Part shown: in pieces, positions 91 through 36,946 of the stretch
How the letters are laid out: every line of letters begins with the position of its first letter
Position numbering within the stretch: the first letter of the stretch is position 1
Virus record (IMG/VR): IMGVR_UViG_3300044695_006401
Reading direction: 5' to 3' (one strand)
Source of the DNA: a virus
Lineage: Duplodnaviria > Caudoviricetes
Length of the DNA: 64,000 nucleotides
Notes under the pieces: model-generated
The model's input: the letters and a program-made list of their open reading frames with translations, nothing else
Databases searched by the model: none
Told to the model about the DNA's origin: nothing
Position numbers and translations under genes: made by a program

Positions 91-170
91 TCTTCATAAC
101 TTAAAGTTTATTTGTTTTATACAATTATAATAAAAATAAACATCGTTGTCAAAAATCGAAAAATCTTGTA

Positions 171-177: not shown

Positions 178-181
178 ATCA

Positions 182-189: not shown

Positions 190-197
190 AAAAAAAT

Positions 198-1345: not shown

Positions 1346-1364
1346 AGTTTTTATTTAATAAATA

Positions 1365-8883: not shown

Positions 8884-10920
8884 ATGATAGAATCCGTAGA
8901 CGAAAACGAAAAACCAAAAAACAAACCTAAAGATAGTTCCTCAAAAACCCCCGTATTAGATAATTTCTCAAGAGATCTAATTAAGGCGGCAGAAGAAGGG
9001 AAGTTGGACCCTGTGATAGGGAGAGAAAACGAGATCAATAGGATTGCTCAAATTTTATCAAGGAGAAAGAAAAACAATCCAATTATTTTAGGGGAACCGG
9101 GTTGTGGTAAAACTGCAATTGTTGAGGGACTTGCAAAAAAGATTTTTGAAGGTGATTGTCCTCAAAATTTAGCAAACAAAAGAATAGTATCGTTAGATAT
9201 GACATCAGTTGTGGCAGGGACAAAATATAGAGGTCAGTTTGAAGAGAGGATGAAGGTTATAATGGAAGAATTATATGGAAATCCCGATATTATAATTTTT
9301 ATTGATGAAATACATACTATGATTGGTGCTGGTAATTCATCAGGTTCTATGGATGCGTCAAACATATTTAAACCCGCACTTTCAAGAGGGGAACTTCAAT
9401 GTATTGGGGCGACAACTTTAGACGAATACAGAAAAAATATTGAGAAGGATGGGGCATTAGAAAGAAGATTCCAAAAAGTTATTGTTGACGCATCAACAAA
9501 AGAAGAAACATTACTAATTCTTCAACAATCCAAAGAAAGTTATGAAAATTACCACAAAGTAATTTATAGTGATGATATTATGAAACTTTGTGTGGAGTTA
9601 GCCGATAGATATATTACTGATCGTGAATTTCCAGATAAGGCATTTGATATTATTGATGAGGTTGGGGCAAGATCTCAAGTGGAAGTAAAACTTCCTGAAA
9701 TTATTGAGGACTTGAAAAAAGAAGCTTTGAAAATCAAAGAAGAAAAGTTAGATGTCATCAACAAACAAAAGTATGAGGAGGCGGCTAATTTACGAGACAA
9801 AGAAAGAAAAGTTCTTGCCGAATTAGAAAATGAGAAACAAAAATTCGAAAAGAATCGTGACATGTTTAAAAGAGAAGTGACTGAAGATGTCGTTTATGAT
9901 GTAGTTTCTTTAATGACAAAAATTCCTGTGAATAAAATATCTACAGATGAAACACAACAACTTATTTCTTTAAAAGAAAATTTGAACACAAAAGTTATTG
10001 GTCAGGATGATGCTGTAAGTAAAATAGCAAGGGCAATTCAGAGAAATAAAGTTGGTTTAAACGATCCGAAAAAACCTATTTTCAGTGGTCTGTTAATTGG
10101 TAATTCGGGAGTCGGGAAAACAGAACTCGCAAAACAATTGGCAAAACATATGTTTAACAGTGAAGACGCTTTAATCCGTTTAGACATGAGTGAGTTTTCA
10201 GATAAAATTTCAACATCCAAATTGACGGGAACATCACCAGGTTATGTGGGGTTTGAAGAGGGCTCACCATTTTTGAATAAAATCAAAAACAAGCCATACT
10301 CTGTAATTCTATTAGATGAAATAGAAAAGGCACATTCCGATATATTCAATGTTTTTTTACAGATGTTGGATGAGGGTATGTTAACAGACGGTCATGGGAG
10401 AAAAATAAATTTTAAAAATTGTATTATTCTAATGACTTCTAATGTGGGAACTAAGGTTGTACAAGATTTTGGGACGGGTGTCGGTTTTTCAACAACGGCA
10501 AAAACTGAAAGAAAAGACGATGAGATCAAAACACTTTTGGAAAAAGAGCTATTCAAAAAATTCCCGCCTGAGTTTATCAATAGATTTGATGATATAGTTT
10601 ATTTCAAAGACCTTAATAAAGAGGATTTGTTAAAAATTGTTGATTTAGAACTTAATAAATTCTACGAAAGAATTTCTAAGTTAGAGTTTTCTGTAGATGT
10701 CGATGAGACACTAAAAAAACATCTAATAGAAGTCGGAATGGATACTCGTTTTGGGGCTAGAATACTTAAAAGAACCGTACAGAAATGGATTGATGATGCA
10801 ATCACTGAAAAAATCCTTACAGATAACCCAGAAAAAGGATCAAAGTTTGTTCTTACTTATAACGAGAAGGAAAAGAAAACTGATGTTAAAATAAAAAAAC
10901 CAATTAAAAGAAAAAAATAA
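8884..10920 (+). CDS. clpC: ClpC/ClpA-type AAA+ unfoldase lacking the N-terminal Clp-repeat domain
   Basis: Two AAA modules ([14 protein letters not shown]; [17 protein letters not shown]), UVR-like M-domain ([11 protein letters not shown]), ClpP-docking VGF loop; sequence begins just before LDNFSRDL. Confidence 0.9.
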
Positions 10921-10921: not shown

Positions 10922-10952
10922 TTTGCAAATGTTAAAAACTTTTGTACATTTG
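10922..10952 (+). promoter_or_regulatory. Bacteroidota sigma70-type promoter (TTTG-N19-TACATTTG)
   Basis: Perfect consensus and spacing; it overlaps the ORF-track start 10942, so true start is ATG 10966. Confidence 0.8.
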
Positions 10953-10965
10953 TAAAAAAACAGCA

Positions 10966-12018
10966 ATGAACATAGAAAAATTTAAAGAGCTCCTTTCAGT
11001 CCCAAGCAAGACATATCAAGAAGAAGATATGGTAGAGTTTATTTGTGACGAGTTGGGGGATATGGAAGGGGTTACTTTCTATCGTGATGTAATGATGAAC
11101 ATCTACGCGACAAAAGGTGTGTTAGAGGAAGGTGAATTTTACCCTATGTTTATTGCTCACACAGATACAGTACACAGTAAGATTGAAAAAATAGTAGTTA
11201 AAGAAGAAAAACTTGCTCGACCTTACACTTTTGGTAAATCCTTTGACAACACACCAGTTGATGTATTAAAGGCTTATGACACTAACGGTAACCCAACAGG
11301 TATTGGTGGTGATGACAAGTGTGGTATTTTTATTTGTTTAGAGTTACTAAAACAATTAGACAAAGTAAAAATTGGTTTTTTTGTTTCAGAAGAAACAGGA
11401 TGTCACGGTTCATCAAAATGTGATGAAAACTTTTTACAGAATGTTGGTTATATCACTCAATATGACGCACCTGGTAATCACTTAATTACCGAGATTTGCT
11501 CGGGAGTTCGTTTGTTTGAAAGGGAGAGTGAGTTCTTTGAAAAAACATTAGAAGTTATTACGGAATCTTTTGGTAATGAAATGTTAGTTCAATCTCACCC
11601 TTACACCGACATTTCACAACTAAAAAAGAAAATCAATGTTTCTTGCATTAACATGTCTTGTGGTTATTACAATATGCACTCAGTTCAAGAGTTTGTATCC
11701 TTAGACGATGTAAAAAATGCGATTGAAGCAGGAAAGAAGATGGTTGCAGTATTGGGACTTAAAAAATACACATACGAATATGCTCCTATCAAATATACTC
11801 CTCAATTAATAATGAATTCACTTGTGGAAGATTTAGATGAAGAAGTTTTTGATTACCCTGAAGAAACTTTTCATCGTTTAGGGAGTATAGACGCATATGA
11901 AGAAAAAGATGGTATCACATTAAGTGACGCTTATGACGATGGATTTTTATTTATCCCCGATGAGGATTTAGTAAGTCTTTATGAAATTATTAAAGAAAGA
12001 TTGATTAAAAAGTATTAA
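10966..12018 (+). CDS. zinc metallopeptidase, M28/M20/M42 clan
   Basis: AHTDTVH, GGDDK, SEETG, QYD, YYNMH..E metal-ligand pattern; start moved to MNIEKF. Confidence 0.8.
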   Translation: MNIEKFKELLSVPSKTYQEEDMVEFICDELGDMEGVTFYRDVMMNIYATKGVLEEGEFYPMFIAHTDTVHSKIEKIVVKEEKLARPYTFGKSFDNTPVDVLKAYDTNGNPTGIGGDDKCGIFICLELLKQLDKVKIGFFVSEETGCHGSSKCDENFLQNVGYITQYDAPGNHLITEICSGVRLFERESEFFEKTLEVITESFGNEMLVQSHPYTDISQLKKKINVSCINMSCGYYNMHSVQEFVSLDDVKNAIEAGKKMVAVLGLKKYTYEYAPIKYTPQLIMNSLVEDLDEEVFDYPEETFHRLGSIDAYEEKDGITLSDAYDDGFLFIPDEDLVSLYEIIKERLIKKY

Positions 12019-13740: not shown

Positions 13741-14094
13741 TTAACAATCGGATTTAAGGGTCCCCTTCCAATTAGGGTGATTTAAAGTTAGTTGAGAAAC
13801 CACCATGGAAGAAATAGGTTGATTACTTTCATCCACTATCTGACCAGTTTTACATGAATAAGTATAATCTTTTCCACTTCTATCATTTATCCATCCTAAA
13901 TCTTGACTCCACTGTTTTAAATCAAACCCGACTCCGTCGGCACCATTGTTTCCAGTATTAGCAATACGCATTCCTTTTCTATTTTTTTCCGCAGCTACAG
14001 AATATTGCGCCCAATCCATCACTTCTTGTTCGTTGATTACTCTGGATACGATTCTTTTCAAGTCACTTTCAGTTAATCTTACAATTTTACTCAT
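13741..14094 (-). CDS. hypothetical protein with LTESDL..IV.RVI.EQ N-terminal leader
   Basis: MSKIVRLTESDLKRIVSRVINEQ. Confidence 0.75.
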   Translation of the reverse strand: MSKIVRLTESDLKRIVSRVINEQEVMDWAQYSVAAEKNRKGMRIANTGNNGADGVGFDLKQWSQDLGWINDRSGKDYTYSCKTGQIVDESNQPISSMVVSQLTLNHPNWKGTLKSDC

Positions 14095-15281: not shown

Positions 15282-15755
15282 TTATTTTGACATTGATAAT
15301 GCTTTTTTAGCATCTCCAATGTAATTTACAGCATTTCCTGCAGTTGGTGAACTAGGTTGACCTTTAGATTGACAAAAATTTCTAACCATTTTATCTACTA
15401 CACTACCTCTTCCAAAAACATAAGTACTACCACCTTCGAAAACATCCGCAGAACTTCTTGGACTTAATGCCCCTGGATTGGCGCTAGGACCACATGCGGC
15501 ATAAAGAACAATGTTTCCTTTTGTTACAGGAGATCCATTATCTTTGATTCTAACTCCGTTGAATTTAACCTGAGCAGTCACTGTTCCCTTGTAACCTGAA
15601 CCACCAGCGATAGTTGGTTGAGAAAGTACAATAGCGTAATCTTGCATATCACGACTATATCCAGCATCAATAACAGCTGGTGTAGTTTGTTCCTCGATTA
15701 CTCTTTTTACGATATTAACTAAATCGGATTCAGTTAGTCTAACAATTTTTTTCAT
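15282..15755 (-). CDS. hypothetical protein with LTESDL..IV.RVI.EQ N-terminal leader
   Basis: MKKIVRLTESDLVNIVKRVIEEQ. Confidence 0.75.
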   Translation of the reverse strand: MKKIVRLTESDLVNIVKRVIEEQTTPAVIDAGYSRDMQDYAIVLSQPTIAGGSGYKGTVTAQVKFNGVRIKDNGSPVTKGNIVLYAACGPSANPGALSPRSSADVFEGGSTYVFGRGSVVDKMVRNFCQSKGQPSSPTAGNAVNYIGDAKKALSMSK

Positions 15756-16436: not shown

Positions 16437-17318
16437 CTAACTAAATGTTAAAGTTATTGTTTGAGATGGTGCCCCTACCGTACTTTGATTAGTCCCTCCC
16501 CAGTTAGCATTATTAATCATAGGTCTAAGAGCATATGTACTACCCGCGTTACAACTAGCAATGTTTGAGAACTCAACGGCAACCCCACCAATTTTAGGTG
16601 TACCACATCCCGTACCAACTCTCCAAGACACACTATTAATAGTTACTGAAGTTATTGTGGCGGTTCTTAACCCATTCGCTAAGGTCTGTACTAAGGTTGG
16701 ATCTGAAACCGTTATTGAATTTCCATTTGTACTTGACCATACAAATTGGGTGTATGTAGTACCAGTTAATTGACTTCTAAATGTATTCCAAGCAGTTTCT
16801 ATTGCGGATGATGGTGCAGTCGCCCCTGTGAATGCTTGTGAGAATGTAACACCACTTTCAGGTATAGGATTAGTTGTTGGGGTTGGAGTTGGTGTTGCAG
16901 TAGGAGTAGCTGTTGGTGGTATTGGTGTTGCCGTTGGTGTAGGTGTTGCTGTAGGGGCAACAAAATTCCAAGAACTCCAATACCCATTACCACTTAACCA
17001 TAGATATGCTTCGTTTCCTGTGTTAAATGTTTGTCCTGAAGAAATAAGTTCCGACAACTCAATAAAGTCATTTTCTAAAAAACCATCAGTTCTAAAAAAA
17101 CCAACTGAAGCAGTTTGACCCGATACATTAGTAGGTTGGCTGTTATCAGGTACTGATTGGGCAACAACATAACCAAGATCTTCATCAGGTCCATTCCACC
17201 AAACTGGTGGACCTGAAAACCCCGAAAATGGGGTACCAACGCATAGATCACCAATTTGTGTTGTTCCTGAAATAGAAACTCTTGATGGGTTATATGCAAA
17301 TGGTCTTAGTGTTGGCAT
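16437..17318 (-). CDS. virion fibre-like protein with Pro/Thr linker
   Basis: Start at MPTLRP via TAATG overlap with upstream stop; [11 protein letters not shown] linker; Ser/Thr/Gly-rich beta C-domain. Confidence 0.7.
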   Translation of the reverse strand: MPTLRPFAYNPSRVSISGTTQIGDLCVGTPFSGFSGPPVWWNGPDEDLGYVVAQSVPDNSQPTNVSGQTASVGFFRTDGFLENDFIELSELISSGQTFNTGNEAYLWLSGNGYWSSWNFVAPTATPTPTATPIPPTATPTATPTPTPTTNPIPESGVTFSQAFTGATAPSSAIETAWNTFRSQLTGTTYTQFVWSSTNGNSITVSDPTLVQTLANGLRTATITSVTINSVSWRVGTGCGTPKIGGVAVEFSNIASCNAGSTYALRPMINNANWGGTNQSTVGAPSQTITLTFS

Positions 17319-17584
17319 TAGATAGTTGGCATCGGTGATGTCCATTCAGGAGTTGATAGAATCACCAAAATTTCATCATATGTGTATGGACCTTCTTTTG
17401 TTGTTAAGTTGTTAACACAAGATGGTATCGTACCGTCCCATTTAACAAATGTTTTTGTTTCATTGACTGATTTTCTCACAGTTTCTGCAGATGTTTCTAA
17501 TACGGTTGAGAAGTCGATTTGACCTAACTCACTCACATTAAAAATCATAAATCTTCTGTTGTCGTATTCTTCTAAAGTTGCCAT
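17318..17584 (-). CDS. small hypothetical protein (fibre-associated)
   Basis: 88 aa between LamG and PT-linker genes. Confidence 0.7.
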   Translation of the reverse strand: MATLEEYDNRRFMIFNVSELGQIDFSTVLETSAETVRKSVNETKTFVKWDGTIPSCVNNLTTKEGPYTYDEILVILSTPEWTSPMPTI

Positions 17585-17600: not shown

Positions 17601-18566
17601 TTATAATCCAAATCTCGATTTTTGTGCGTTAAAGTTTTGTAATATTTCAGCATCGCTTAATACCCTATTATATACTTGAGCAATTGCAATTCTACCTCCA
17701 AAAACATTAGAACCTGTACCATAAGCACCGACAAGTATTTCACTACCACCATTAAATGTTGATGTACTACTAGAAGTTGACTCAGACGCGCCATTTACAT
17801 ATAATTTCCATCCTGTGGTTGTGTTAAAAGTAACAGCACCAAAATACCAAGTGTTTAAAGATAAAGAAGTCGTACTTACAACGGTTGACCACTGTCCGTT
17901 GTGACCGGCATGTAGTTTATTTGTACCCGCTAACCAAAAAGCATGTTGACCATTATTACCACCACTAATTATGTTATAAAGATAACTGGTTATATAGAAC
18001 CATGAGATTTTTGTATAAGTACTATATGAAAGTATATTAGCATTGGAATTAACTACAACACAATCATTAACACCATCAAATACGATACTACCTCCGTTTG
18101 AGGAGTTAAAAGTGGGCCCATTGGTTAATGTCCCATCATTAACCCCATACGACAAATCATACCATGTGGTTCCTGAAGTGGTGTATGACGGGGTAAATCC
18201 CGCATCCAAGTTCAAAATTAAACCATTAGAACTAATAGCATCATAATCTCTATTAACACAAACATAATTTGTTTGCGTTGCATACCAATTTAAACATTGC
18301 GTAGCGGTATTAAAATTTTGACCTGAAACTCCATTTGTATATGCGATAAGTGCAGCATCGTTATTTGCAGAATGAAAACTCAACCTAGATACCTGACTTG
18401 CATTATATGAATATATTGTGTAACCACCGGCAGAAGGAGTAACCCCATTATAATATGTTGTTGCACTTGAAGGTCCTTTTCCAACATCACCAACACCAAA
18501 GAATATATTACCCTTCTTTAATGAGAGTGTATCACCTGTGGTTGAATATTTAATTGCGTTTGGCAT
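17601..18566 (-). CDS. LamG/concanavalin A-like lectin domain protein (virion fibre/adhesin)
   Basis: LDAG...SY...GTTWYDLS, FDGVND, NTWY...TF......LYVNG, GRIA....YNRVLS..EI.QNFNA. Confidence 0.85.
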   Translation of the reverse strand: MPNAIKYSTTGDTLSLKKGNIFFGVGDVGKGPSSATTYYNGVTPSAGGYTIYSYNASQVSRLSFHSANNDAALIAYTNGVSGQNFNTATQCLNWYATQTNYVCVNRDYDAISSNGLILNLDAGFTPSYTTSGTTWYDLSYGVNDGTLTNGPTFNSSNGGSIVFDGVNDCVVVNSNANILSYSTYTKISWFYITSYLYNIISGGNNGQHAFWLAGTNKLHAGHNGQWSTVVSTTSLSLNTWYFGAVTFNTTTGWKLYVNGASESTSSSTSTFNGGSEILVGAYGTGSNVFGGRIAIAQVYNRVLSDAEILQNFNAQKSRFGL

Positions 18567-18592: not shown

Positions 18593-19522
18593 CTAAATCA
18601 ATTCTATTACCTTATTATAAACTTGAATTACCGATGGGTGACATTCAAAAGTTTCTTTTCTTTCTAAACAACCCACTAAAGATGGGACCCCTTGTATTGT
18701 ACCCCATTCTCTAACCCCGTATTTAACATCCGACGCACAATTTAATCCACAACCACCTCTAACATAATGATATTTATATTCTTGGGATCCGTGTCTGTAT
18801 GGTGATCTAAATTCAGGATTTATTGAACTTCCTAATTGTAATATTTCGCAATCTGTAGTCCCTGCCAAATGTAAAAGACCTGAATCCATTGTTACAAAAC
18901 AAGAACAGTTATTTAATAAATGCCAAGTCTGATCTAAACTTGTTTGATTCATCAAGTTATAACCAATTTTAATTGGGAAATTAAAAATAGGTTTGTCAAC
19001 ATTTGAACCACCTAATTCAGAAGAATCTTTACCTACGGAAATAACATAAATTCCTTTTTCATTTAATAACTGAGTTAACATTTGCCAATTTTTTGCAGTC
19101 CAAGTTCTCGAATCCCAATTTTGTACAGGATGGATTAAAACATATTTTTTTGGTAAATCAGGGAGGATAACATCTCTTGGGAAATAATCTAAAGTCATTT
19201 CATCTTTATTTAACATAAACCCTAAAGAGATCGCATGAAACTGTCTTATATCCATGGCATTATGTTTATTACATATACCATCAGATTTATATGAAATATC
19301 AAATGTATTAATTACATGGTACATTTCTTTTAATTGATCCTGATTTGTAGAACCATCAAAAATATTTTCCACATATGGATTTGATTGAAATAACTCAGGT
19401 ATGTTAGTTATTATAGATATTTTTTTACCATAAGAATTATATAGTTTTTTAATTGTTGGTGTCGAGCATAGTGTGTCCCCTAATGCTCTACAACCAGTTA
19501 TATCTAAACATATTTCTTTCAC
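18593..19522 (-). CDS. GT9-like glycosyltransferase (heptosyltransferase fold) with C-terminal Cys cluster
   Basis: ALGDTLC.TP, YVLIHP...R.W...W..L, FVTMDSGLLHLAG; C-terminal CGLNC...C...FECHP. Confidence 0.8.
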   Translation of the reverse strand: MKEICLDITGCRALGDTLCSTPTIKKLYNSYGKKISIITNIPELFQSNPYVENIFDGSTNQDQLKEMYHVINTFDISYKSDGICNKHNAMDIRQFHAISLGFMLNKDEMTLDYFPRDVILPDLPKKYVLIHPVQNWDSRTWTAKNWQMLTQLLNEKGIYVISVGKDSSELGGSNVDKPIFNFPIKIGYNLMNQTSLDQTWHLLNNCSCFVTMDSGLLHLAGTTDCEILQLGSSINPEFRSPYRHGSQEYKYHYVRGGCGLNCASDVKYGVREWGTIQGVPSLVGCLERKETFECHPSVIQVYNKVIELI

Positions 19523-19574: not shown

Positions 19575-22511
19575 ATGGAAAAAATTACACTTCTTTATTT
19601 AACTCCCCACCTTTCAACAGGAGGGATGCCACAGTTTGTACTCAAAAGAATCGAGTCTCTTAAAAAACATTCAGATAAAATTGAAATAGTAGTTGTTGAA
19701 TATTCACAATTTAGTGACACATATGTTGTACAAAGAAACAAAATCATAAATCTAATTGGTCAACACAACTTTTATAGTTTAGGTGATACTACAGATACAC
19801 AAAAAAAGTATGATTTAATAAAAATCATAAAAGATAGAAATATTGATATTGTTCACGCAGAAGAGATACCTGAGGCGTTCGAAAGTTTTAATAGGATACC
19901 TATAGATCTTTTGAATAAACTTTATGATAATTTTAGAACTTGGAAAATTGTTGAGACATGTCACAATGTTTGGTTTGATGCAAATAACAAAAAGAAACTA
20001 CATCCTGATTATTATTGTTTAGTTACGCCGTATCATGAAAAAGTATCGTTTAATCAAACGATATCACCAAAAAAACTTTTAATGTTCCCATACGAAGATA
20101 AAGTAAAACCAATTTTAGAGGAACTTGAAATATATTATGAAGATCACAGAATTCCACTATTAAAAAAAATGACCGAAAGAACTAATTTGGGAATCGACCC
20201 AACGAAGACACATATTTTAAATGTTGGTCTTTGGACGGAAGGTAAAAATCAAAAAGAGGGTATTGAGGTGGCAAGACTTTTACAGGATTCACACCCAAAC
20301 TTACATTTCCATTTTGTTGGAAATCAAGCACCTAACTTCGAAAACTATTGGGGTCCTATCATGAATAATTTACCCAAAAATGTTACAGTTTGGGGAGAAA
20401 GAAATGATGTGGACTCATTTATGATGTCTTGTGATGTTCTCATGTTTAATTCGACATGGGAATGTAATCCACTTGTAGTAAGAGAAGCGGTCAACTATGG
20501 AATGAAAATTTTAACAAGAAATTTACCACAATACATGGGAATGTTTGATAACTACATTACTAGTATTGCAAATGAAGACACATTTGAAAGTATTTCCGAA
20601 AAATTAGTTTCAGTCATTAATTCAGAAAGTTCTTATAAAATTGAAAGTGGTTATGATTTTGGTGATGAGTTAATGTCATTTTATACTGAAGTTAAAAACA
20701 CACCACATATGGGGAATCAACCAATAAAAAATGATTATACGGTTAACCAACATTTTGTTGTAAATCCATACATTGAAATTTTAGGTGATTCAACAAATGA
20801 CATGGAAATATCGGTTTATGATAATCAAAATAATGAGTTGGTGTACACAAACAAATTACCAATAAAACATTGGGTAAAATTAAATCGTGAATATTTCACA
20901 GAATGGAGAACCGAAATAAAAGAAAATGGTGAAACATTTTATTTTGATATTTTGAGTTTAAAAAATAGAAGAGTTTATATTTCATTTGGGTCCAAATCTT
21001 TGGGTGACACAATGGCTTGGATCCCTTATTGCGAAGAGTTCAGAAAAAAACATAATTGCCATTTGATTGCATCAACATTTATGAATGAGCTATTTGTTGA
21101 TCAGTATTCCGAAATAGAATTTGTAAAACCTGGTGATTCAGTTAATAACATCTATGCACAATATAGATTAGGTTGGTTCTATAATGAAGATGGGACCTTC
21201 AATTCAAATGTACATAAAAATGATATTCGAAGACAGCCACTTCAAAAAACAGCAACAGATATATTGGGGTTAGATTATATTGAAATCAGACCAAACCTTA
21301 ATCTACCAAAAGTTGAAAAAAGAAAAAAGGTTGGTATAGGATTTCATTCCACGGCACAATCAAAGTATTGGAACAACCCGAATGGATGGCAAGAAGTTGT
21401 AGATTATTTAAATAATTTGGGGTATGAGTGTATGATATACTCAAGAGAAGGTGATGGTTACATGGGTAATAATTACCCAAAAGGCGTAACAATCTATAAA
21501 GGTGGAAACTTACAAGAAGTGATTAATGATTTATCTACATGTGAGTTTTTTATAGGTTTAGGTTCAGGATTAAGTTGGTTGGCTTGGGCTTGTGAATTAC
21601 CTGTGGTTTTAATCTCAGGGTTTAGTGAAAAATGGGCGGAAACAACTTTAGATACTTACAGAGTTATTAACGAAAATGTTTGTCATGGATGTTTTAATTC
21701 AGAAAGATTAGATGCGGGTGATTGGAACTGGTGTCCGTTACATAAAAATACAGACAGAATGTTTGAGTGTACCAAAAGAATAAGCTCCGATATGGTAGTA
21801 AAAGAAATAAATAAAATAATAAATAAAGAAGTGGTTGAAGAAAGAAAAAATAAATTAGAAGGATTTGATTGGGGTGGAAAAGATAATTGGTATGTTGACG
21901 CAACAATTGAAGAAATGGGTTATGGTAATATGTACGATAGATTTTTTACGGTTGAGGAAAATGATGTTGTTGTAGACTTAGGGGGGTCTTTAGGTCCGTT
22001 CACATATTCAATTCTCCCTAATAACCCAAAACAGTGTTATGTTGTTGAACCCCTAAATTCTCAAGTTGAGGTTATCAAAAAAAATCTTAATAAACCTAAT
22101 GTAAAAATTATTAGAGGTGCAATTACAGATAAAAAACATCTAACAATCACTTGGGACGATGTTTCTGAAAATGTACCAACATTTACATTTAAAGAGTTCT
22201 TAGAGGAAAATAATATAAACCATATTGATTTCTTAAAATGTGATTGTGAGGGAGGGGAATACGATGTATTTCAACCAAGTAATATTGAGTTTTTAAAAAC
22301 CATACCAAAAATTGTAACTGAATTCCATATGAGGGTTAATGAGAATTTTCATAACTGTAAGTTCAGATGGTTTAGAGATAATATACTACCACAATTTAAT
22401 AACTATCAAGTTTTTTCTGTTGATGGTGTTGATATTAAATGGGATTTATGGAATGACCATTTCTTGGATTGGTATTGTGAAGTAATAATTTATATAGACA
22501 ATAGAAACTAA
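19575..22511 (+). CDS. three-domain fusion: GT4-type glycosyltransferase + AAH/TibC-like autotransporter heptosyltransferase + FkbM-like methyltransferase
   Basis: GT4: PHLSTGG, KNQ.EG, FNSTWECNPLVVREA; BAHT: SLGDT.AW.PY.E.F, KYWNN..GW.EV, FFIGL.SGLSWLAWA..LPVVLISGFS, CHGC, WCP.HKNTDR.FECT; FkbM: VVDLGGSLG, IDFLKCDCEGGEY. Confidence 0.88.
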   Translation: MEKITLLYLTPHLSTGGMPQFVLKRIESLKKHSDKIEIVVVEYSQFSDTYVVQRNKIINLIGQHNFYSLGDTTDTQKKYDLIKIIKDRNIDIVHAEEIPEAFESFNRIPIDLLNKLYDNFRTWKIVETCHNVWFDANNKKKLHPDYYCLVTPYHEKVSFNQTISPKKLLMFPYEDKVKPILEELEIYYEDHRIPLLKKMTERTNLGIDPTKTHILNVGLWTEGKNQKEGIEVARLLQDSHPNLHFHFVGNQAPNFENYWGPIMNNLPKNVTVWGERNDVDSFMMSCDVLMFNSTWECNPLVVREAVNYGMKILTRNLPQYMGMFDNYITSIANEDTFESISEKLVSVINSESSYKIESGYDFGDELMSFYTEVKNTPHMGNQPIKNDYTVNQHFVVNPYIEILGDSTNDMEISVYDNQNNELVYTNKLPIKHWVKLNREYFTEWRTEIKENGETFYFDILSLKNRRVYISFGSKSLGDTMAWIPYCEEFRKKHNCHLIASTFMNELFVDQYSEIEFVKPGDSVNNIYAQYRLGWFYNEDGTFNSNVHKNDIRRQPLQKTATDILGLDYIEIRPNLNLPKVEKRKKVGIGFHSTAQSKYWNNPNGWQEVVDYLNNLGYECMIYSREGDGYMGNNYPKGVTIYKGGNLQEVINDLSTCEFFIGLGSGLSWLAWACELPVVLISGFSEKWAETTLDTYRVINENVCHGCFNSERLDAGDWNWCPLHKNTDRMFECTKRISSDMVVKEINKIINKEVVEERKNKLEGFDWGGKDNWYVDATIEEMGYGNMYDRFFTVEENDVVVDLGGSLGPFTYSILPNNPKQCYVVEPLNSQVEVIKKNLNKPNVKIIRGAITDKKHLTITWDDVSENVPTFTFKEFLEENNINHIDFLKCDCEGGEYDVFQPSNIEFLKTIPKIVTEFHMRVNENFHNCKFRWFRDNILPQFNNYQVFSVDGVDIKWDLWNDHFLDWYCEVIIYIDNRN

Positions 22512-23098
22512 TGGAATTTAAGGAAAACAAAATAGACCCGCAAAATTATTATTGGTATCAAAATGGGTTTAGTAAGGAAGAATTAATCAAAGTACATGAA
22601 GGTGTTTCTAATTTACCATTCAGTGAAGCCACTGTTTTTGGAAATGATAATCCTGAGATAATTAAAAAAATTAGAAGTTCGTCCGTTAAGTGGATACCAA
22701 AAACAGATGAGTGGATGTGGTTATATGAAAAACTACTCGACATGGCGAGCACCGCAAACAGAGAGGTTTGGAAGTTTAATCTGATATCAGCTCCCGAGTT
22801 AATTCAGTATACCGAATATTATGACACCGCAGGTGGTCATTATGATTGGCATCAAGATATTGGGCCCGGTATCGGATCAAGTAGAAAGGTTTCTTTGACC
22901 GTTCAACTTTCAGATCCAAGTGAGTATGATGGTGGAGATTTACAGTTATGGAGAGGTGGTGACGATGTTGTTAACGCCGAAAAAGGTGCTGGAGTTGTTT
23001 TTATTTTTCCAAGTTACATGATGCATAGAGTAACCCAAGTGACCAAAGGTACTAGAAGAAGTTTTGTGTTATGGGTTGGTGGTGACCACTATAGATAA
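22511..23098 (+). CDS. 2OG-Fe(II) oxygenase (prolyl-hydroxylase/PKHD-type)
   Basis: YDWHQD, RK.S..VQLS.P.EY.GG.L, HRVT.VTKG.R.S.V.W. Confidence 0.88.
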   Translation: MEFKENKIDPQNYYWYQNGFSKEELIKVHEGVSNLPFSEATVFGNDNPEIIKKIRSSSVKWIPKTDEWMWLYEKLLDMASTANREVWKFNLISAPELIQYTEYYDTAGGHYDWHQDIGPGIGSSRKVSLTVQLSDPSEYDGGDLQLWRGGDDVVNAEKGAGVVFIFPSYMMHRVTQVTKGTRRSFVLWVGGDHYR

Positions 23099-24291
23099 GA
23101 TGAAATTTCTTTTGATTTAAGTATATTGTCCTCTATTGAACAATATGTCCACTCACCGTACCTACCTATTGAAAATATATTTTTTGGGTTGTGTTTTTCA
23201 CACCATCGATTGTAAGTATTTTTTGAGTCATTAGTTATATGCACATATGCGGGGTTCATGATTAGAAATTGGTGGTCGACAAGTTTATGATCGGATATGA
23301 CATTTGTCTTCCTTAAATCATTAAGTACGGTGTCAAGTAAATCAATCTCGTCAACTAAATCATCTTTTTCCAAACCAATCTCAACATACAAACTCAATTT
23401 TTCCTGACCTAAAATATTGTTATAGAAACCAACCCTATAAAAAACCTCTTCATTTGGGTAATATCTCCAATGAGTTTTTATGTCAGAACCTTTATCAAAA
23501 CCTAAATTAAAAACCGCAACTTTATTGGCCGATAAATTATATCTTTGTTTTGTTAAATCTAATAATTTATTTAATGGTAGAGTACTAACTAATTTGTTGA
23601 ATCTTATGTCTCCGATATTTGTTCTAACAATTTTATTAGATAAGTCTATATCTATAACATTAGTATTTAATTGTATTTTACTTTGATCAACCCTCTTTAA
23701 TATAGATTTGATGTATTCATAACTACCATTTATTGGATAAATAAATGTGTCATTGTAACTTATATTAATATTTTCTTGTGGTGGTTTTGGAAAAAATCTA
23801 CCCATGGAATCAAACTCGAGTTGGTTAAGATCACAAGCATATAATTTTTCATTGTAGGGTATAATAAACTTATCACAAATACCATTCCCTAAAGTTGTTC
23901 TAACATAATTCTTAAATGTAGATCTATCTTCAGGTCCACAATTTTTAAGGTCAGTTAGGCACTCGTCATATTCTTCTTTATTAAGTTGGGATATGTTGTG
24001 TTGGAAAGGAAAATTAATAATCTTACCTTGATAATCAATGTCGGTTATTTTATTAACCTCTAACAATTCACAATCAATTTCAGATAAAACATAGTTTTTA
24101 ATTTCTTCATTTCTAAAATGAAAAAAATGTCCCGAATAATCCCATACATAATCACCTCTGATTGTTGTTTTACAATAACCACCTAACTCATTATCTTTCT
24201 CTATGATTAGATAATCTTTCCCATTTAAAAAAGACGCTAAGGATAAACCAGTCACACCACCACCAATAATAAGAATATCAGTTTGTTTCAT
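23089..24291 (-). CDS. FAD-dependent oxidoreductase, UDP-galactopyranose-mutase-like
   Basis: IIGGGVTG, IEK...LGG.C, YSGHFFH, GRYGEW.Y. Confidence 0.75.
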   Translation of the reverse strand: MKQTDILIIGGGVTGLSLASFLNGKDYLIIEKDNELGGYCKTTIRGDYVWDYSGHFFHFRNEEIKNYVLSEIDCELLEVNKITDIDYQGKIINFPFQHNISQLNKEEYDECLTDLKNCGPEDRSTFKNYVRTTLGNGICDKFIIPYNEKLYACDLNQLEFDSMGRFFPKPPQENINISYNDTFIYPINGSYEYIKSILKRVDQSKIQLNTNVIDIDLSNKIVRTNIGDIRFNKLVSTLPLNKLLDLTKQRYNLSANKVAVFNLGFDKGSDIKTHWRYYPNEEVFYRVGFYNNILGQEKLSLYVEIGLEKDDLVDEIDLLDTVLNDLRKTNVISDHKLVDHQFLIMNPAYVHITNDSKNTYNRWCEKHNPKNIFSIGRYGEWTYCSIEDNILKSKEISSYL

Positions 24292-25423
24292 TAATAGTAA
24301 TTTTTTCCATAAAGAAGTTATAGTTTGTGGTTAACCTATCTTTGTGACCCTCAAATAACGGATCGTTAATAATGTTGTTTAACAAATATAAACCTTCATC
24401 ATATCTCTGAGTCCAATAACAAGAAACCGATAACTCATCATTAACATAATTATTATACGAGGTGTCATCCACAAATAGTATATATTTCTTTTTTACATCC
24501 TCAAGGGAAAGATTTTTGGCAATTTTCAAATGTTTGTAACCCATCTCAAAGTCACCAATCTGATTAAAATATAAACCTATTTTATAGTGTGGTTCGGCTC
24601 TGTCCGAAAATATATTAATAGCCCTTAACATTTCGTTATATATTTTTTCTCGATCAAAATTTAATTTCATCATACATATTGAAATTCTCATCTGAGACTC
24701 AAACAATTCTTCCACCCAAGCGTCTTTTAAGTTGGTATATAGTTTGTTCCACTTTAACGCTTCTTCAAACATACCATAGTCCATAAAACTTTGGGCCGCG
24801 TAGAATACGGATCTATAATTCAAACCATCAGGATCGTCAATCAAAGTATCCCAAAATTGTTTTTGGAGTCTTTCAGCGTCGTAATAATATTTCTTAGGGT
24901 CAAAGGCTCTTGACCCAACACCATCCGCAATCACATAACCACGATTGGATAAATCACCAGTCGTGTAATGGTCTTTATCTAAACATTTAATTATTGTGTG
25001 TGCAACGCCACAGAATTTCCACCTTAATCTGTTGTTGTAAATTACGGTTGCCTTCCATGTTGAGGTTCCTCGTTTCATCATCATGAAATAATTGTCATAA
25101 CCAACATCATCAAACCCAAAAGAAAAGTCACCTGCTAAAATATCATCAGCATCTAAATGTAAAACATAATCAGTTTTATCAAAAACATATTCCATCATCA
25201 TGTTTTTGTTTTTATCAAAACCAAACCACTCATCACGATGAATTTCACCAGGTATACCTGTACGATCCATGAACTCTTGTACAATATCTAATGTTCTATC
25301 AGTCGATCCGTTATCGGCAACAACCAAATAATCTATATATGGTGCAACCGCATCTAATACGGTTCCGATGATGTGTTCTTCATTTTTACACATCGTAGCA
25401 AATGCTAATGTTGGTCTATTCAT
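24278..25423 (-). CDS. GT2 glycosyltransferase with C-terminal TPR-like helices
   Basis: CKNEE, D.GSTDRT, LDADD; helical C-terminal half with Y/A TPR pattern. Confidence 0.85.
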   Translation of the reverse strand: MNRPTLAFATMCKNEEHIIGTVLDAVAPYIDYLVVADNGSTDRTLDIVQEFMDRTGIPGEIHRDEWFGFDKNKNMMMEYVFDKTDYVLHLDADDILAGDFSFGFDDVGYDNYFMMMKRGTSTWKATVIYNNRLRWKFCGVAHTIIKCLDKDHYTTGDLSNRGYVIADGVGSRAFDPKKYYYDAERLQKQFWDTLIDDPDGLNYRSVFYAAQSFMDYGMFEEALKWNKLYTNLKDAWVEELFESQMRISICMMKLNFDREKIYNEMLRAINIFSDRAEPHYKIGLYFNQIGDFEMGYKHLKIAKNLSLEDVKKKYILFVDDTSYNNYVNDELSVSCYWTQRYDEGLYLLNNIINDPLFEGHKDRLTTNYNFFMEKITINETN

Positions 25424-26666
25424 AAATTTTGTTTAATATTTCTTCTTCTTGATAATATTTTTTGGTGTAGATCATGTTCTGAAATTTCTGAGAGTGTCCT
25501 ACCGAATCATCCCAATTCCAATCTTTTTTACCTAACTCTAATATTCTATTGTGTATTTGATTATCATAAAAATCTCTAATCAGTCTTGATCTACGATTAA
25601 TATCTACTGAGTTATTATCCACAGTACTATTTCTATCGTTCCATTGTAGATATAACATCTTTTTAATGTGTACTATTTCAGTATTTAAAAATGTTCTAAC
25701 AATCAATTCATAATCATCCGCAACGGGTGTATGAGTATTGTGACCTCCGATCTTATCATACACTCCTTTTTTCCAAACCCTAACATGATTTGGCATACTA
25801 ATATTAAACCTAATTGTGAGGGGATTAATATCGGGATAATGATGATTAATATATGTTTTTCCATCGACCTCCACATAAGTGTGACCTGCATACCCAAAGT
25901 CAAAATAGTTATCGTGTCTGGCATACCAATTACCTGAATAGTCATGATCATAAGTTTTCATCTCACCATCTTCATAAAGTTCACACACATCACTATACAT
26001 AAAACCAGCATTTGGAAACTGTAAACTTGCTTTATGACATTCCTCTAAACATGTTGAAATTAATGTATCATCATGATCTAACTCAACTAACCATTCACCA
26101 TTACAAAGTGATGTCGCTCGATGTTTAACCAAACCAATATTACCGTTACTTTGGGGTAATATGCGGTGTATCTTCACTCTAAAATCTTTTTCAGATATAT
26201 CTTTTATAATATTCCAAGTCGTACCATCATTTGAATCATCAACAATAACCCATTCCCAATCATCGACGGTTTGATTTTTTATACTTTCATAAGTTCTGAT
26301 TATTTTTCTACCTGTTTGAAAAGTTGGTGTGAAGATTGAAAACTTAGGTCTAATATTTTGACAATTTCTAAATGTTGATTGGCATACAACATCATTTGCT
26401 AAAATATTGTCGGGTGGAAAACTTAAATATCTAATTATTCTATTCGAAATAATTTTATTATTTGAGGAAACTCTGTTGTCGCAACCCATGATAATATCAG
26501 GTTGGTAAACCGAAAAATCTTTAATTATATCATCGCTAAAAGGTAATGAATAAATTATAACTTCCTCTAAAAGATTTTCTTCATAATATACATCAGATGT
26601 TAGAGTGAATGTACCTAACTCCCTCCAACCATAAACGATCGCGGATGGTTTTTTTGTTTTCATCAT
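25416..26666 (-). CDS. GT2 glycosyltransferase with N-terminal extension
   Basis: FSIFTPTF, WEWVIVDDS.D, LVELDHDD, IGG....P.ADDYEL; start may be 26663. Confidence 0.85.
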   Translation of the reverse strand: MMKTKKPSAIVYGWRELGTFTLTSDVYYEENLLEEVIIYSLPFSDDIIKDFSVYQPDIIMGCDNRVSSNNKIISNRIIRYLSFPPDNILANDVVCQSTFRNCQNIRPKFSIFTPTFQTGRKIIRTYESIKNQTVDDWEWVIVDDSNDGTTWNIIKDISEKDFRVKIHRILPQSNGNIGLVKHRATSLCNGEWLVELDHDDTLISTCLEECHKASLQFPNAGFMYSDVCELYEDGEMKTYDHDYSGNWYARHDNYFDFGYAGHTYVEVDGKTYINHHYPDINPLTIRFNISMPNHVRVWKKGVYDKIGGHNTHTPVADDYELIVRTFLNTEIVHIKKMLYLQWNDRNSTVDNNSVDINRRSRLIRDFYDNQIHNRILELGKKDWNWDDSVGHSQKFQNMIYTKKYYQEEEILNKIYE

Positions 26667-27247
26667 TTTTCAGTATCAAAAAAGAATGTTTGAAATAAAC
26701 GGCCATCATAAATGTCTTGACCAAAATAATCCAAGGAAATGTGAAAATGATCACCCCTATAAAGAACCAAACGATTATAAACATTTCCAATTCTATCAAC
26801 TAATTCCCATTTAGTCATGTCTTGTGAATCTTTATATATTTGATTTAATATATCCATATTATAGGATCCGTCCTCATTTTTAGGTGCCATTGTTAGACCT
26901 GTTGGTTTATGTTTAAATAAACCAGTGCCTGAACTTAGTGGAGCATCTGGGGTTAAATAACATACTCCAGCCCATTTAGTTGTTTGATCTGCGTGGATCC
27001 AACTACGATCTTTAGATGTTGTAAATTGGTATGACCCTGTATATTGTTCTTCAGACCAATAAGTTACTTTTCCATAATATGGGAATACAACAGATTCTAT
27101 AACATCTTTCATAGAATCGTTTAAAAAAGATTTGGTTCTCCTACCTGGATAATTACCACTTACAGGGTAATCTTGCTGTAGTGCGAACTTTCTAACTTCA
27201 TCAACATCTGAGTAAAAGTCATCAATAATATAAGTGGATATTTGCAT
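26663..27247 (-). CDS. 2OG-Fe(II) oxygenase-fold protein (DUF6445-like)
   Basis: IIDDFY, YPG.RT, WIHAD, YL.P...SGT, NRL..Y....FH, RL.Q.FF. Confidence 0.72.
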   Translation of the reverse strand: MQISTYIIDDFYSDVDEVRKFALQQDYPVSGNYPGRRTKSFLNDSMKDVIESVVFPYYGKVTYWSEEQYTGSYQFTTSKDRSWIHADQTTKWAGVCYLTPDAPLSSGTGLFKHKPTGLTMAPKNEDGSYNMDILNQIYKDSQDMTKWELVDRIGNVYNRLVLYRGDHFHISLDYFGQDIYDGRLFQTFFFDTEK

Positions 27248-27293: not shown

Positions 27294-27746
27294 TTAACAA
27301 GGACCTTGATAAACTAAAGTAGATCCATTCCATTGGTAACAATCGTTCCCATCTGAATAAAATCCACTTGGTGCTGGAGTAGTACATTGATCCTCATCAA
27401 ATATTCCAGTGGCAAATGCTAATAAACATGGGTCATCCTGACAAGTTCGTTTCAAATAAACACTTCTTATATCATTACACTCACAAGACTTTCTACAATC
27501 ATCTCTGTCAAAACATAAGTTAGCAGGACAACAGTCAGGTACACATGTAGGTGTTGGAGTAGGTGTTGGTCTTGGAGTAGGTGTTGGTCCTCCAGGTGTT
27601 GGTGTTGGTGTTGGTGTTGGGGTAGGTGTTGGACAAAATGGGTTGTCATCCCAAAATTTTATATCTCCACCAGCACCCGCTAATAAATTATTAACCGCAT
27701 TTATATTACCACATAATACATCATTAAGTTTAGTTATATTACCCAT
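27294..27746 (-). CDS. small Cys-rich protein with Pro/Thr linker
   Basis: PTPTPTPTP linker then about 10 Cys in C-terminal domain. Confidence 0.75.
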   Translation of the reverse strand: MGNITKLNDVLCGNINAVNNLLAGAGGDIKFWDDNPFCPTPTPTPTPTPTPGGPTPTPRPTPTPTPTCVPDCCPANLCFDRDDCRKSCECNDIRSVYLKRTCQDDPCLLAFATGIFDEDQCTTPAPSGFYSDGNDCYQWNGSTLVYQGPC

Positions 27747-27753: not shown

Positions 27754-30700
27754 TCATACTAATTCAATCCAATCTTGTGAAGGATTAAAGTAAATTATAT
27801 CAGCTGAAATCGCATAACCAACAACTCTTACTATGTCACTAGTGCCCGATGGTTGAGTGGATGTTATATCTCCATCGGTAGTTGATAAATACAACACTTG
27901 ACCTGGAGTCCAGTTCCATGCCGATCTATATGCATAACCTCGTAACATCATACCCGAGTTGAATTGAACACCTATCGCCATTCCAAGTAGACCCTGAGCG
28001 GTTGCAGAACTATCAGCATCCGCAAGTGCCCATGCTGAACCACTTGTCCAATAGTATACATTATATTTAGTTGAGGTTCCGCTACCACCAAATGTTACAA
28101 GTTCGCCATAATAATCATCGATAGTCATGAGTGTGGTCGGATCAGTCGCTAATCTCCATTCACCCTCTAATAAGGTTGTTGAACTAGTATTAGCTCTAAA
28201 CAAGTTAGCACCTGTATTAATGGTAAAGGCGGCACTTGAGTTCGCTGAATTCGATGTACCGTTTGCAACTAAAATATTATTAGCAGTAGTTGGAGAAATT
28301 GATGTAAATCCTGCACCTTGGGCCCCTTGTGCCCCCTGTGGACCAGGACCTCCCGTTGCACCTTGAGCCCCTTGGGCTCCAGTTGCCCCTAATCCCGCAG
28401 GTCCAGTTGGTCCTTGTGCTCCTTGAGGTCCAGGTCCGCCTGTCGCTCCTTGTGCTCCTTGAGGTCCAGGACCGCCTGTAGCTCCTTGTGCTCCTTGAGG
28501 TCCAGGACCACCTGTTGCTCCTTGAGCTCCGGTCGCTCCTTGGGCACCTTGAGGTCCAGGTCCGCCTGTTGCTCCTTGTGCACCTTGAGGTCCAGGTCCG
28601 CCTGTTGCTCCTTGGGCACCTTGAGGTCCAGGTCCGCCTGTTGCTCCTTGAGCTCCGGTCGCTCCTTGTGCACCTTGAGGTCCAGGTCCGCCTGTTGCTC
28701 CTTGTGCTCCGGTTGCTCCTTGTGCTCCGTTAACTCCGCTAGTTCCATTTGTTCCTGAAGTACCAGCAGCACCTTGTGCTCCGGTTGCTCCTTGTGCTCC
28801 AGTTGCTCCTTGTGCTCCGGTTGCTCCTTGTGCTCCGTTAACGCCTGAAGTACCTCTCGTACCGCTAGTTCCATTTGTTCCTGAAGTACCAGCGGCCCCT
28901 TGTGCTCCGGTTGCTCCTTGTGCTCCAGTTGCTCCTTGTGCTCCGTTAACTCCGCTAGTTCCATTTGTTCCTGAAGTACCAGCGGCCCCTTGTGCTCCGG
29001 TTGCTCCTTGTGCTCCAGTTGCTCCTTGTGCTCCGTTAACTCCGCTAGTTCCATTTGTTCCTGAAGTGCCAGCGGCTCCTTGTGCTCCAGTTGCACCTTG
29101 TGCTCCAGTCGCTCCTTGTGCTCCGTTAACTCCGCTAGTTCCATTTGTTCCTGAAGTGCCAGCAGCTCCTTGTGCTCCAGTTGCACCTTGTGCTCCGGTT
29201 GCTCCTTGTGCTCCGGTTGCTCCTTGTGCTCCGTTAACTCCGCTAGTTCCATTTGTTCCTGAAGTACCAGCAGCACCTTGTGCTCCGGTTGCTCCTTGTG
29301 CTCCAGTTGCTCCTTGTGCTCCGGTTGCTCCTTGTGCTCCGTTAACGCCTGAAGTACCTCTCGTACCGCTAGTTCCATTTGTTCCTGAAGTACCAGCGGC
29401 CCCTTGTGCTCCGGTTGCTCCTTGTGCTCCAGTTGCTCCTTGTGCTCCGTTAACTCCGCTAGTTCCATTTGTTCCTGAAGTACCAGCGGCCCCTTGTGCT
29501 CCGGTTGCTCCTTGTGCTCCAGTTGCTCCTTGTGCTCCGTTAACTCCGCTAGTTCCATTTGTTCCTGAAGTGCCAGCGGCTCCTTGTGCTCCAGTTGCAC
29601 CTTGTGCTCCAGTCGCTCCTTGTGCTCCGTTAACTCCGCTAGTTCCATTTGTTCCTGAAGTACCAGCGGCTCCTTGTGCTCCAGTTGCTCCTTGTGCTCC
29701 GTTAACACCTGATGTTCCTCTCGTACCGCTAGTACCGTTTGTTCCTGAAGTCCCATTCGTTCCATTTGTACCTGACGTTCCGTTAGTCCCGTTTGTTCCA
29801 TTTGTCCCGTTAGTACCTGACGTACCATTTGTTCCGCTAGTACCGTTTGTTCCTGACGTTCCATTTGTACCGTTTGTACCTGAAGTACCATTGGTTCCAC
29901 TTGTGCCGTTAGTTCCGTTAGTACCTGAAGTTCCATTTGTACCATTTGTTCCCGAAGTTCCGTTAGTTCCTGATGTGCCATTTGTTCCTGATGTTCCATT
30001 TGTACCACTTGTGCCGTTTGTTCCTGATGTTCCATTAGTACCATTGGTACCTGATGTTCCGTTTGTACCATTCGTCCCATTAGTTCCTGACGTTCCGTTT
30101 GTGCCATTCGTTCCTGATGTACCTCTTGTACCTGACGTACCGTTTGTTCCATTCGTTCCGCTAGTACCATTTGTTCCTGAAGTTCCGTTGGTTCCATTAG
30201 TCCCCGATGTTCCATTGGTTCCGTTGGTACCTGATGTGCCATTAGTTCCATTTGTTCCTGATGTTCCGTTTGTACCATTAGTACCTGAAGTGCCGGCAGC
30301 ACCTTGAGCTCCCTGAGGTCCAGTTGGTCCTTGTGCTCCCTGAGGTCCAGTCGCGCCTTGTGCTCCAACCGCACCTTGAGCTCCCTGAGGTCCAGTTGCG
30401 CCTTGTGCTCCGTTTACTCCTGATGTACCATTAGTACCTGAAGTACCCGCAGCCCCTTGAGCTCCTTGTGGTCCAGTCGCCCCTTGAGCGCCTTGTGGTC
30501 CAGTGGCACCTTGTGCCCCATTTACTCCTGATGTTCCGTTTGTCCCCGATGTACCATTTGTACCATTAAGACCACTTACTCCCGAAGTACCATTAGTTCC
30601 TGATGTACCATTAGTTCCGTTCGTACCTGAAGTCCCATTAGTACCATTAGTTCCCGAAGTTCCGTTTGTTCCATTAGTTCCTGATGTTCCTCTTGTCCCT

Positions 30701-36837: not shown

Positions 36838-36946
36838 CTATTTTTTCTTTTTTCCCTCTCCAAAAGAAAACCCTTTGATTTATGTTTTATAGATAAATAT
36901 TACCTGAGTAAAGTTTATCCACCAAAAAGAAAAATTAAATAATTAT

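Follow-up and report, generated by a model that had tools for sequence, protein, structure and literature searches.

The tailed phage held in IMG/VR as record IMGVR_UViG_3300044695_006401 (Duplodnaviria; Caudoviricetes) encodes a three-module enzyme, which we analyzed within a stretch of 64,000 nucleotides of its DNA (the whole stretch is referred to as the window). A single uninterrupted open reading frame (ORF) at 19575-22511 (+) codes for 978 aa, and its product is an intact protein of a giant lake phage, in which a family 4 glycosyltransferase (GT4), a glycosyltransferase core of the TibC/AAH type and an FkbM methyltransferase are joined. In a tree of the core the protein groups with a viral clade of the TibC/AAH family that is separate from the bacterial members, and two very long collagen-like fibre genes are located approx. 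5 kb downstream. The fusion probably O-glycosylates these fibres of the phage and then extends and methylates the glycan. We give this reading a probability of about 55%; within it, we infer the acceptor and the sugar donor.

Modules and fold of the fusion protein

The fusion, its modules and the two genes by which the window was classified are as follows.

19575-22511 (+): P0001, fusion of GT4, TibC/AAH-type glycosyltransferase and FkbM methyltransferase (ORF, Pfam and NCBIfam domains, AlphaFold2 model)
19575-20699 (+): GT4 retaining module of GT-B fold, residues 1-375, with EX7E motif E296...E304 (PF00534, 52.8 bits; fold matches)
20739-20951 (+): TibC-type N-terminal beta-barrel, residues 389-459 (all-strand segment of the model; Foldseek alignment)
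20970-21824 (+): TibC/AAH-type catalytic GT-B module, residues 466-750 (TIGR04414; alignment with TibC; residue roles from PMC4358343)
21885-22499 (+): FkbM-family S-adenosylmethionine (SAM) methyltransferase module, residues 771-975 (PF05050, TIGR01444; alternating strands and helices in the model)
1365-3185: portal (phrog_213, E 1e-65)
3223-4998: large terminase

The portal and large terminase genes, together with other virion-type genes surrounding the locus, identify the window as phage DNA. In the fusion, Pfam detected Glycos_transf_1 (PF00534) at residues 200-353 (52.8 bits; gathering score 26.4), FkbM (PF05050) at residues 860-922 (46.7 bits; cut-off 22.7) and a weak Glyco_transf_9 match at residues 581-680 (24 bits). 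The NCBIfam equivalog TIGR04414 (hepto_Aah_TibC), titled 'autotransporter strand-loop-strand O-heptosyltransferase', scored 270.8 bits over residues 409-748, above its curated cut-off of 200, and TIGR01444 (fkbM_fam) scored 49.1 bits at the C-terminus (cut-off 37.7). A phmmer search of the PDB aligned residues 431-748 with TibC (4rap, 4rb4) at an E-value of 6.8e-66. The domain and TibC matches are far beyond chance, and together with the portal and terminase genes they bear out the original prediction, made from the letters of the DNA, of a triple GT4, AAH/TibC-like and FkbM fusion in a phage. The middle domain had been placed at 20745-21820, corresponding to residues 391-748, in agreement with the span of TIGR04414. 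All signatures quoted for it were found in the ORF, namely SLGD (D478), KYWNNPNGWQEV, SGLSWLAWACELPVVLISGFS and the cysteine finger CHGC...WCPLHKNTDRMFECT (C703, C706, C720 and C732). The FkbM module contains the SAM motif VVDLGGSLG at residues 798-806. E296 of the GT4 EX7E motif is invariant among 37 homologues and E304 is conserved in at least 90% of them. The leader upstream of the ORF is A/T-rich, and no Shine-Dalgarno sequence was found in it.

An AlphaFold2 model built on 37 homologues reached a mean predicted local distance difference test score (pLDDT) of 86.7. From the N-terminus it shows a GT-B fold (residues 1-375), a barrel made entirely of beta-strands (389-459) and another GT-B-like module (466-750), followed after a short linker of low confidence (753-758) by a Rossmann-type methyltransferase module (771-975). 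In a Foldseek search of the PDB, all chains of TibC (4rap/4rb4) ranked first with an E-value of 4e-33 and target-normalised template modelling scores of 0.81-0.83. The alignment extended over approx. 390 columns and thus covered nearly the whole TibC protomer (380-390 residues), barrel included. The retaining GT4 enzymes MshA, WaaG, PimB' and BshA followed with E-values of 1e-11 to 1e-13. The GT-B fold and the iron finger, on which the original prediction had staked its assignment, are therefore both recovered: the model has the TibC fold and the finger cysteines are in place.

For the residues that TibC requires according to mutagenesis, roles were taken from the published work (PMC4358343) and mapped by a HMMER alignment and by an alignment of 101 sequences, in which 48 distinct viral sequences were compared with 53 from bacterial genome contigs. 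According to that work (PMC4358343), Asp-110 of TibC is the catalytic base, Thr-226 and Lys-230 bind the beta-phosphate, Trp-305 binds O4 of the heptose, and Cys-339, 342, 358 and 370 form a 1Fe-0S iron finger. The corresponding residues of the fusion, D478, T593, K597, W668 and C703/C706/C720/C732, are each kept in 48/48 viral sequences. TibC assembles into a ring-shaped dodecamer through its beta-hairpin thumb (F265/V266) and F368; the thumb-tip pair aligns with Y629/M630 and F368 with F730. Two positions deviate consistently. Arg-286 hydrogen-bonds N1 of the adenine, and its exchange in R286A abolishes or strongly reduces activity (PMC4358343). This position is V649 in the fusion and Val, Leu or Thr in 48/48 viral sequences, never Arg, whereas it is Arg in 42/53 sequences from bacterial genome contigs. 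Position 300 determines D,D versus L,D stereoselectivity and is Pro in TibC and Ser in AAH (PMC4358343); in the fusion it is Gly. A role in DNA glycosylation and a non-catalytic role of the fusion were considered as well, and both were rejected in view of the invariant catalytic residues and of a match to a protein O-glycosyltransferase at equivalog level.

The viral clade and its collagen-like neighbours

Matching stretches are frequent in IMG/VR (388), and more than 120 full-length homologues with 69-88% identity were found in metagenomes on contigs of up to 296 kb, some of them bearing the automatic Joint Genome Institute name of an autotransporter heptosyltransferase. We fetched 80 related IMG/VR loci for counts of neighbourhood and architecture. 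Most encode the order GT4-core-FkbM; others have GT4-core, core-FkbM with a separate GT4 gene, or a stand-alone core gene close to genes for GT4 and FkbM, and longer homologues additionally contain GT25 or another methyltransferase module. When 1.84 billion cluster representatives (50% identity) were scanned exhaustively with HMMER, 762 clusters matched the core at E-values up to 1e-30. Among the nearest 150 clusters approx. 10 have the size of stand-alone TibC, whereas approx. 140 exceed 420 aa (500-2033 aa), and in these the core is N-terminal, central or C-terminal. The repeated fusion of GT4, core and FkbM in different orders is good evidence that these modules work on one product.

In a quick maximum-likelihood tree of the core calculated with IQ-TREE, bacterial and viral sequences separated into two clades, each supported by a value of 100 in the Shimodaira-Hasegawa-like approximate likelihood ratio test (SH-aLRT). 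The bacterial clade comprises 46 sequences, mostly from Pseudomonadota. The viral clade has 55 rows, made up of all IMG/VR sequences and seven contigs from metagenome-assembled genomes (MAGs), and the core of the fusion belongs to it by this analysis.

The candidate acceptors are encoded downstream of the fusion.

27754-36837 (-): collagen-like fibre protein A, 3027 aa, Gly-X-Y at residues 106-2733 (440 GTN, 295 GTS), proposed acceptor
36947-45043 (-): collagen-like fibre protein B, 2698 aa, proposed acceptor, two Gly-X-Y tracts (residues 304-1590 and 1757-2554) on either side of a globular insert (1595-1758)

Both proteins consist almost wholly of Gly-X-Y repeats between globular ends. Fibre B contains 312 GTN, 252 GTS, 64 GTD and 54 GSS triplets, and totals for both fibres are 752 GTN, 547 GTS, 65 GTD and 67 GSS. 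Within the triplets there are 689 Ser and 1414 Thr residues, while Pro is almost absent. The fibre genes (27754-45043) have a GC content of 0.42-0.53 versus approx. 0.31 elsewhere and a strong AT skew. The C-terminal domain of fibre A and both terminal domains of fibre B are conserved in related loci. An AlphaFold2 model of the fibre A C-terminal domain (12 sequences) had a pLDDT of 41, too poor for a fold assignment. N-x-S/T sequons (Asn-Gly-Thr) number 442 in fibre A and 315 in fibre B, so that N-glycosylation of Asn is conceivable.

The pairing of enzyme and fibre is widespread. An ORF with Gly-[Thr/Ser]-[Asn/Ser/Asp] repeats lies within the flanks of 49 of the 80 IMG/VR loci. Where both flanks extend for 8 kb or more, 28 of 34 loci have it, compared with 0 of 50 bacterial loci, and the median distance from the enzyme gene is 1.7 kb. 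Projected onto the core tree, such an ORF accompanies 32/55 members of the viral clade and 0/46 of the bacterial clade. A control search of 58 loci taken from bacterial genomes (951 kb) found the repeat ORF in only two, both of them viral-clade contigs. Distant members of the viral clade (40-60% identity) retain the collagen-like ORF, and a 735-kb megaphage has a shorter example near the enzyme. BAHT genes (bacterial autotransporter heptosyltransferases, the family of TibC and AAH) have been observed to precede or adjoin the gene of their substrate. In agreement with this rule, the downstream gene in the bacterial clade often codes for a repetitive adhesin, and AIDA repeats were detected in 2/5 loci tested. 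The collagen-like giants are thus the obvious candidate, and most likely the acceptor of the fusion.

Three loci of the bacterial clade (L100, L115 and L133) have Hint-domain or cadherin-like giant proteins after the BAHT genes, not classical autotransporters. The range of BAHT substrates in this clade, too, may be wider than described.

A cultured representative is the Microcystis phage Mel-JY01 (PP395634.1). Its 1226-aa fusion is composed of GT4, a middle segment and a C-terminal TibC-type module (317 bits). A 1016-aa collagen-like ORF of Gly-Thr/Ser-Ser triplets (2-3052, +; locus L144) lies 1.7 kb upstream. GenBank annotates antisense ORFs with Val-Pro-Glu repeats here (1-651 and 739-2298, -) plus a short C-terminal piece, and the collagen-like region is probably annotated on the wrong strand. 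The protein as a whole is named FkbM in GenBank; its middle segment, having no BLAST similarity to the FkbM module of the window and no Pfam family, is not assigned here as a methyltransferase.

Several observations weigh against the collagen-like fibres as acceptor. TibC targets strand-loop-strand motifs of a beta-helix and not Gly-X-Y chains. Six long-flank loci from two lineages have no collagen-like gene nearby, and no other obviously repetitive neighbour was seen in them; likewise, no collagen-like ORF was found within 12 kb of the enzyme in a 636-kb megaphage. Synteny among related phages is in part inheritance, and the loci are not independent observations. Finally, proteins with Pro-Thr-rich linkers are also encoded near the fusion, as listed here with two further genes of the region.

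16437-17345 (-): Pro-Thr linker protein, Pro-Thr repeats between globular parts
17601-18566: LamG fibre protein
27294-27746 (-): 150-aa protein encoded immediately downstream of fibre A, co-occurring with the fibre in several loci
45062-46225 (-): Pro-Thr linker protein, Pro-Thr repeats between globular parts

A Pfam search of the non-collagen parts of the fibres, the 150-aa protein and the Pro-Thr linker proteins gave nothing above threshold; the sole trace was Phage_depo_C at the N-terminus of fibre A (23.4 bits, cut-off 25). The linkers are up to approx. 90 residues long, and the two proteins carrying them flank the modification cluster.

The same chemistry could be directed to another virion protein, either the Pro-Thr linker proteins or the LamG fibre protein, with the collagen-like genes as mere syntenic neighbours. 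Thr/Pro linkers are classic O-glycosylation sites, and in addition to the two in the window, Pro-Thr linker ORFs occur in the flanks of 30 of the 80 related loci. They are absent, however, from distant loci that keep the collagen-like gene (L049, L054, L058, L061, L062, L067 and L068) and from Mel-JY01. Moreover, TibC modifies Ser and not Thr (PMC4358343), and the linkers have almost no Ser. The Pro-Thr linker proteins are consequently the weaker acceptor candidate, and we consider this alternative improbable.

A role directed at the host, whose surface adhesins or envelope glycans would be modified in the course of infection to exclude other phages or for takeover, is less probable still. Bacterial relatives of the core do modify surface adhesins, and phage glycosyltransferases that alter host surfaces are established in the seroconversion literature. 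In the window, however, the gene is located among structural genes, between fibre-like genes, and the recurrent tight adjacency is to phage collagen-like genes. The fusion sequence has no evident membrane segment or export signal, and neither an autotransporter nor an AIDA domain was detected among its scanned neighbours. The phage's own collagen-like fibres remain the preferred acceptor.

Sugar donor, neighbouring enzymes and proposed reactions

The fusion is flanked by a second glycosyltransferase, encoded divergently, and by a group of accessory genes.

18593-19522 (-): GT9 enzyme, 309 aa, divergent from the fusion (PF01075, 57.3 bits)
22511-23098 (+): 2-oxoglutarate (2OG)-Fe(II) oxygenase of the prolyl-hydroxylase-like family PF13640, accessory
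23089-24291 (-): FAD/NAD oxidoreductase with a weak UDP-galactopyranose-mutase-like match, accessory cassette
24278-25423 (-): GT2, accessory cassette
25416-26666 (-): GT2, accessory cassette
26663-27247 (-): DUF6445, accessory cassette

The GT9 neighbour adjoins the fusion in most of the 80 loci at 63-76% identity. Its top match in the PDB is the lipopolysaccharide (LPS) heptosyltransferase WaaF (1psw, E 8e-7), and it is 25% identical to the core of the fusion. Comparison of 23 homologues showed that it keeps G15-D16 (LGD-type) and four cysteines (C258, C262, C285 and C294, ...K..FEC), and it does not contain the TibC beta-barrel. We read it as a putative TibC-like paralogue without barrel. 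The four cysteines look like a metal finger of the TibC type.

The conserved GT9-type neighbour points toward heptose as the first sugar. The original prediction had doubted ADP-heptose as donor, arguing that many Bacteroidota lack heptose in their LPS cores. For the donor search we used the related IMG/VR genomes and a sample of genomes from the phylum to which a MAG titled 'uncultured Bacteroidetes' belongs. Of the sampled genomes of this phylum, 107/151 had GmhA-like genes (E-values up to 1e-40) and 27/41 had RfaE kinase-domain genes, in 20 cases over the curated cut-off. A complete 373-kb IMG/VR phage (G003; loci L081, L083 and L084), whose fusion is 56% identical and has the same Val at position 286, itself encodes a GmhA-like protein (188 bits), an RfaE-I-like kinase (301 bits) and an RfaE-II-like adenylyltransferase (107 bits), scattered over the genome. 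With these genes this phage may make its own nucleotide-heptose. The argument from Bacteroidota LPS thus found no support, while the uncertainty about ADP-heptose stands on another ground: as Arg-286 is missing throughout the viral clade, an ADP-sugar is not assured. Both this and the finding that heptose pathway genes were not detected in the two nearest relatives with near-complete genomes (73% identity; 93-97% complete) weigh against the proposed reaction.

The viral core may have switched its nucleotide or its sugar, for instance to GDP-heptose or a hexose, which concerns the donor alone and is otherwise compatible with glycosylation of the fibres. The exchanged residue at position 286, the Gly at position 300 in place of Pro or Ser and the relatives without heptose genes make this a serious possibility. 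On the other side, the fusion retains the equivalents of W305, T226 and K230, its conserved neighbour also belongs to GT9, and GmhA and RfaE are common in the host phylum. The phage with the same Val has a kinase of the RfaE type, that is, of the ADP pathway, and the TibC study itself called the Arg-adenine bond weak (PMC4358343). Taken together, nucleotide-activated heptose is the probable donor of the first sugar.

We propose that the fusion acts in late infection as a soluble assembly line, encoded by the phage, on which a protein-linked glycan is built. The TibC-like module, using the inverting GT9 mechanism with Asp478 as base, would transfer the first sugar onto Ser, possibly also Thr, hydroxyls of Gly-Thr-Ser and Gly-Thr-Asn triplets. 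Most likely this sugar would be heptose, drawn from a nucleotide-activated form that the host provides. Extension of the glycan would then fall to the retaining GT4 module and the barrel-less GT9 neighbour, and the FkbM module would O-methylate it, probably as a cap. The steps would follow one another in this order. We further speculate that a dodecameric ring as in TibC might work processively along the fibre chain. Initiation, extension and capping in one polypeptide, as suggested in the original prediction, is plausible and gains support from the recurrence of the three modules fused in other orders or adjacent to each other.

The sugars of collagen-like glycoproteins such as BclA are thought to provide hydration and stability (PMC8968730), and a triple helix free of proline would need such help. 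On a wider and distinctly more tentative reading, which we regard as unlikely, the viral TibC-like clade might be specialised in the O-glycosylation of collagen, a class of acceptor that would be new for this family. Aided by its fused GT4 and methyltransferase modules, it would hyperglycosylate Ser/Thr residues, hundreds to thousands of them, in proline-free Gly-Thr-Asn/Ser helices, and the sugars would stabilise these as hydroxyproline does animal collagen. If true, jumbo phages, cyanophages and megaphages would possess sugar-coated fibres several hundred nanometres long.

The start of the 2OG oxygenase gene overlaps the stop codon of the fusion (TAATG). Among the 80 loci the oxygenase was found only in the window and in two others (L024 and L056), and the accessory cassette of oxidoreductase, two GT2 enzymes and DUF6445 (23089-27247) only in the window and L024. 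Through the genes at 22511-27247 the fibres may become hydroxylated and receive additional sugars.

Elsewhere in the window, two otherwise unrelated small proteins (13741-14094 and 15282-15755, both -) share the N-terminal leader M-x-K-I-V-R-L-T-E-S-D-L. After the gene of an FtsH-like ATP-dependent protease of 678 aa (8884-10920, +; phrog_4871, 742 bits) comes one for a peptidase at 10942-12018, a pairing unusual for a phage.

Comparison with known glycosylation systems

The closest known system is the BAHT family (TibC/AAH; CAZy GT9; TIGR04414; 4rap, 4rb4; PMC4358343), with which the fusion core shares the layout of beta-barrel and GT-B fold. Also preserved in it are the catalytic Asp, Thr and Lys for phosphate binding, Trp for sugar binding, the four cysteines, a hydrophobic pair at the thumb tip and the equivalent of F368. 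Like BAHT genes, the fusion gene adjoins the gene of a long, repetitive, Ser-rich protein. Unlike TibC, the fusion has a replaced Arg-286, Gly at position 300, fused GT4 and FkbM modules and a place in a separate viral clade (SH-aLRT 100). The partner of TibC/AAH is a beta-helical autotransporter in a proteobacterium, whereas that of the fusion is a Gly-X-Y collagen-like fibre in a phage. Since two defining features of BAHT enzymes, Arg-286 and the autotransporter partner, both fail, we file the core as a distinct viral branch, which probably works like BAHT enzymes on a different kind of substrate and is not an autotransporter heptosyltransferase.

A combination of glycosyltransferase and methyltransferase domains in one polypeptide is known from WsaE, which caps the protein-linked S-layer (surface layer) glycan of Geobacillus stearothermophilus. 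WsaE acts on a lipid-linked rhamnan that is later moved to protein, and it is not known to have a protein-initiating module of the BAHT type. Mimivirus encodes collagen-like proteins and the hydroxylase/glycosyltransferase L230, and its fibrils are glycosylated; Lys residues are hydroxylated and then glucosylated. As in Mimivirus, collagen-like proteins and candidate modifying enzymes are encoded together in the phage, whose 2OG oxygenase is translationally coupled to the fusion. Mimivirus, however, is a eukaryotic giant virus, and its enzyme families are unrelated to those of the fusion.

BclA carries O-linked oligosaccharides whose terminal sugar, anthrose, is O-methylated. Its triplets are Gly-Pro-Thr with Thr in the Y position, and its rhamnose- and GalNAc (N-acetylgalactosamine)-based glycans are made by enzymes unrelated to those of the fusion. 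Fibres A and B resemble this protein of the Bacillus anthracis/cereus exosporium (PMC8968730) in being collagen-like proteins of the prokaryotic type with Thr-rich triplets. BclA is a spore protein of approx. 400 residues, whereas the fibres are phage fibres of 2700-3000 residues with mostly proline-free triplets. Mycobacteriophage glycosyltransferases decorate structural proteins of their own phage (Freeman et al. 2023, cited in PMC12619734). As cited there, that system targets the C-termini of capsid and tail-tube proteins with other glycosyltransferase families, and the account includes neither a collagen-like acceptor nor a fusion enzyme. The same 'moraphage' paper (PMC12619734) mentions core glycosyltransferases, but neither the fusion enzyme nor collagen. 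Our literature searches found no paper on phage BAHT enzymes or on their link to the glycosylation of collagen-like fibres.

BAHT enzymes are known only as modifiers of autotransporter adhesins of proteobacteria. The results described here extend this picture by a large and deeply separate viral clade related to BAHT enzymes, whose nearest clusters are nearly all multi-domain, and by a probable new kind of substrate, proline-free collagen-like fibres. They also reveal modules that recombine in the manner of an assembly line, and the cultured Microcystis phage Mel-JY01 offers a direct test system. The label 'autotransporter strand-loop-strand O-heptosyltransferase' that such phage proteins receive automatically is misleading. 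If confirmed, the modification would rank with the most extensive protein glycosylation of any phage, and it would bear on the protease resistance of the fibres, on host recognition and on folding without hydroxyproline.

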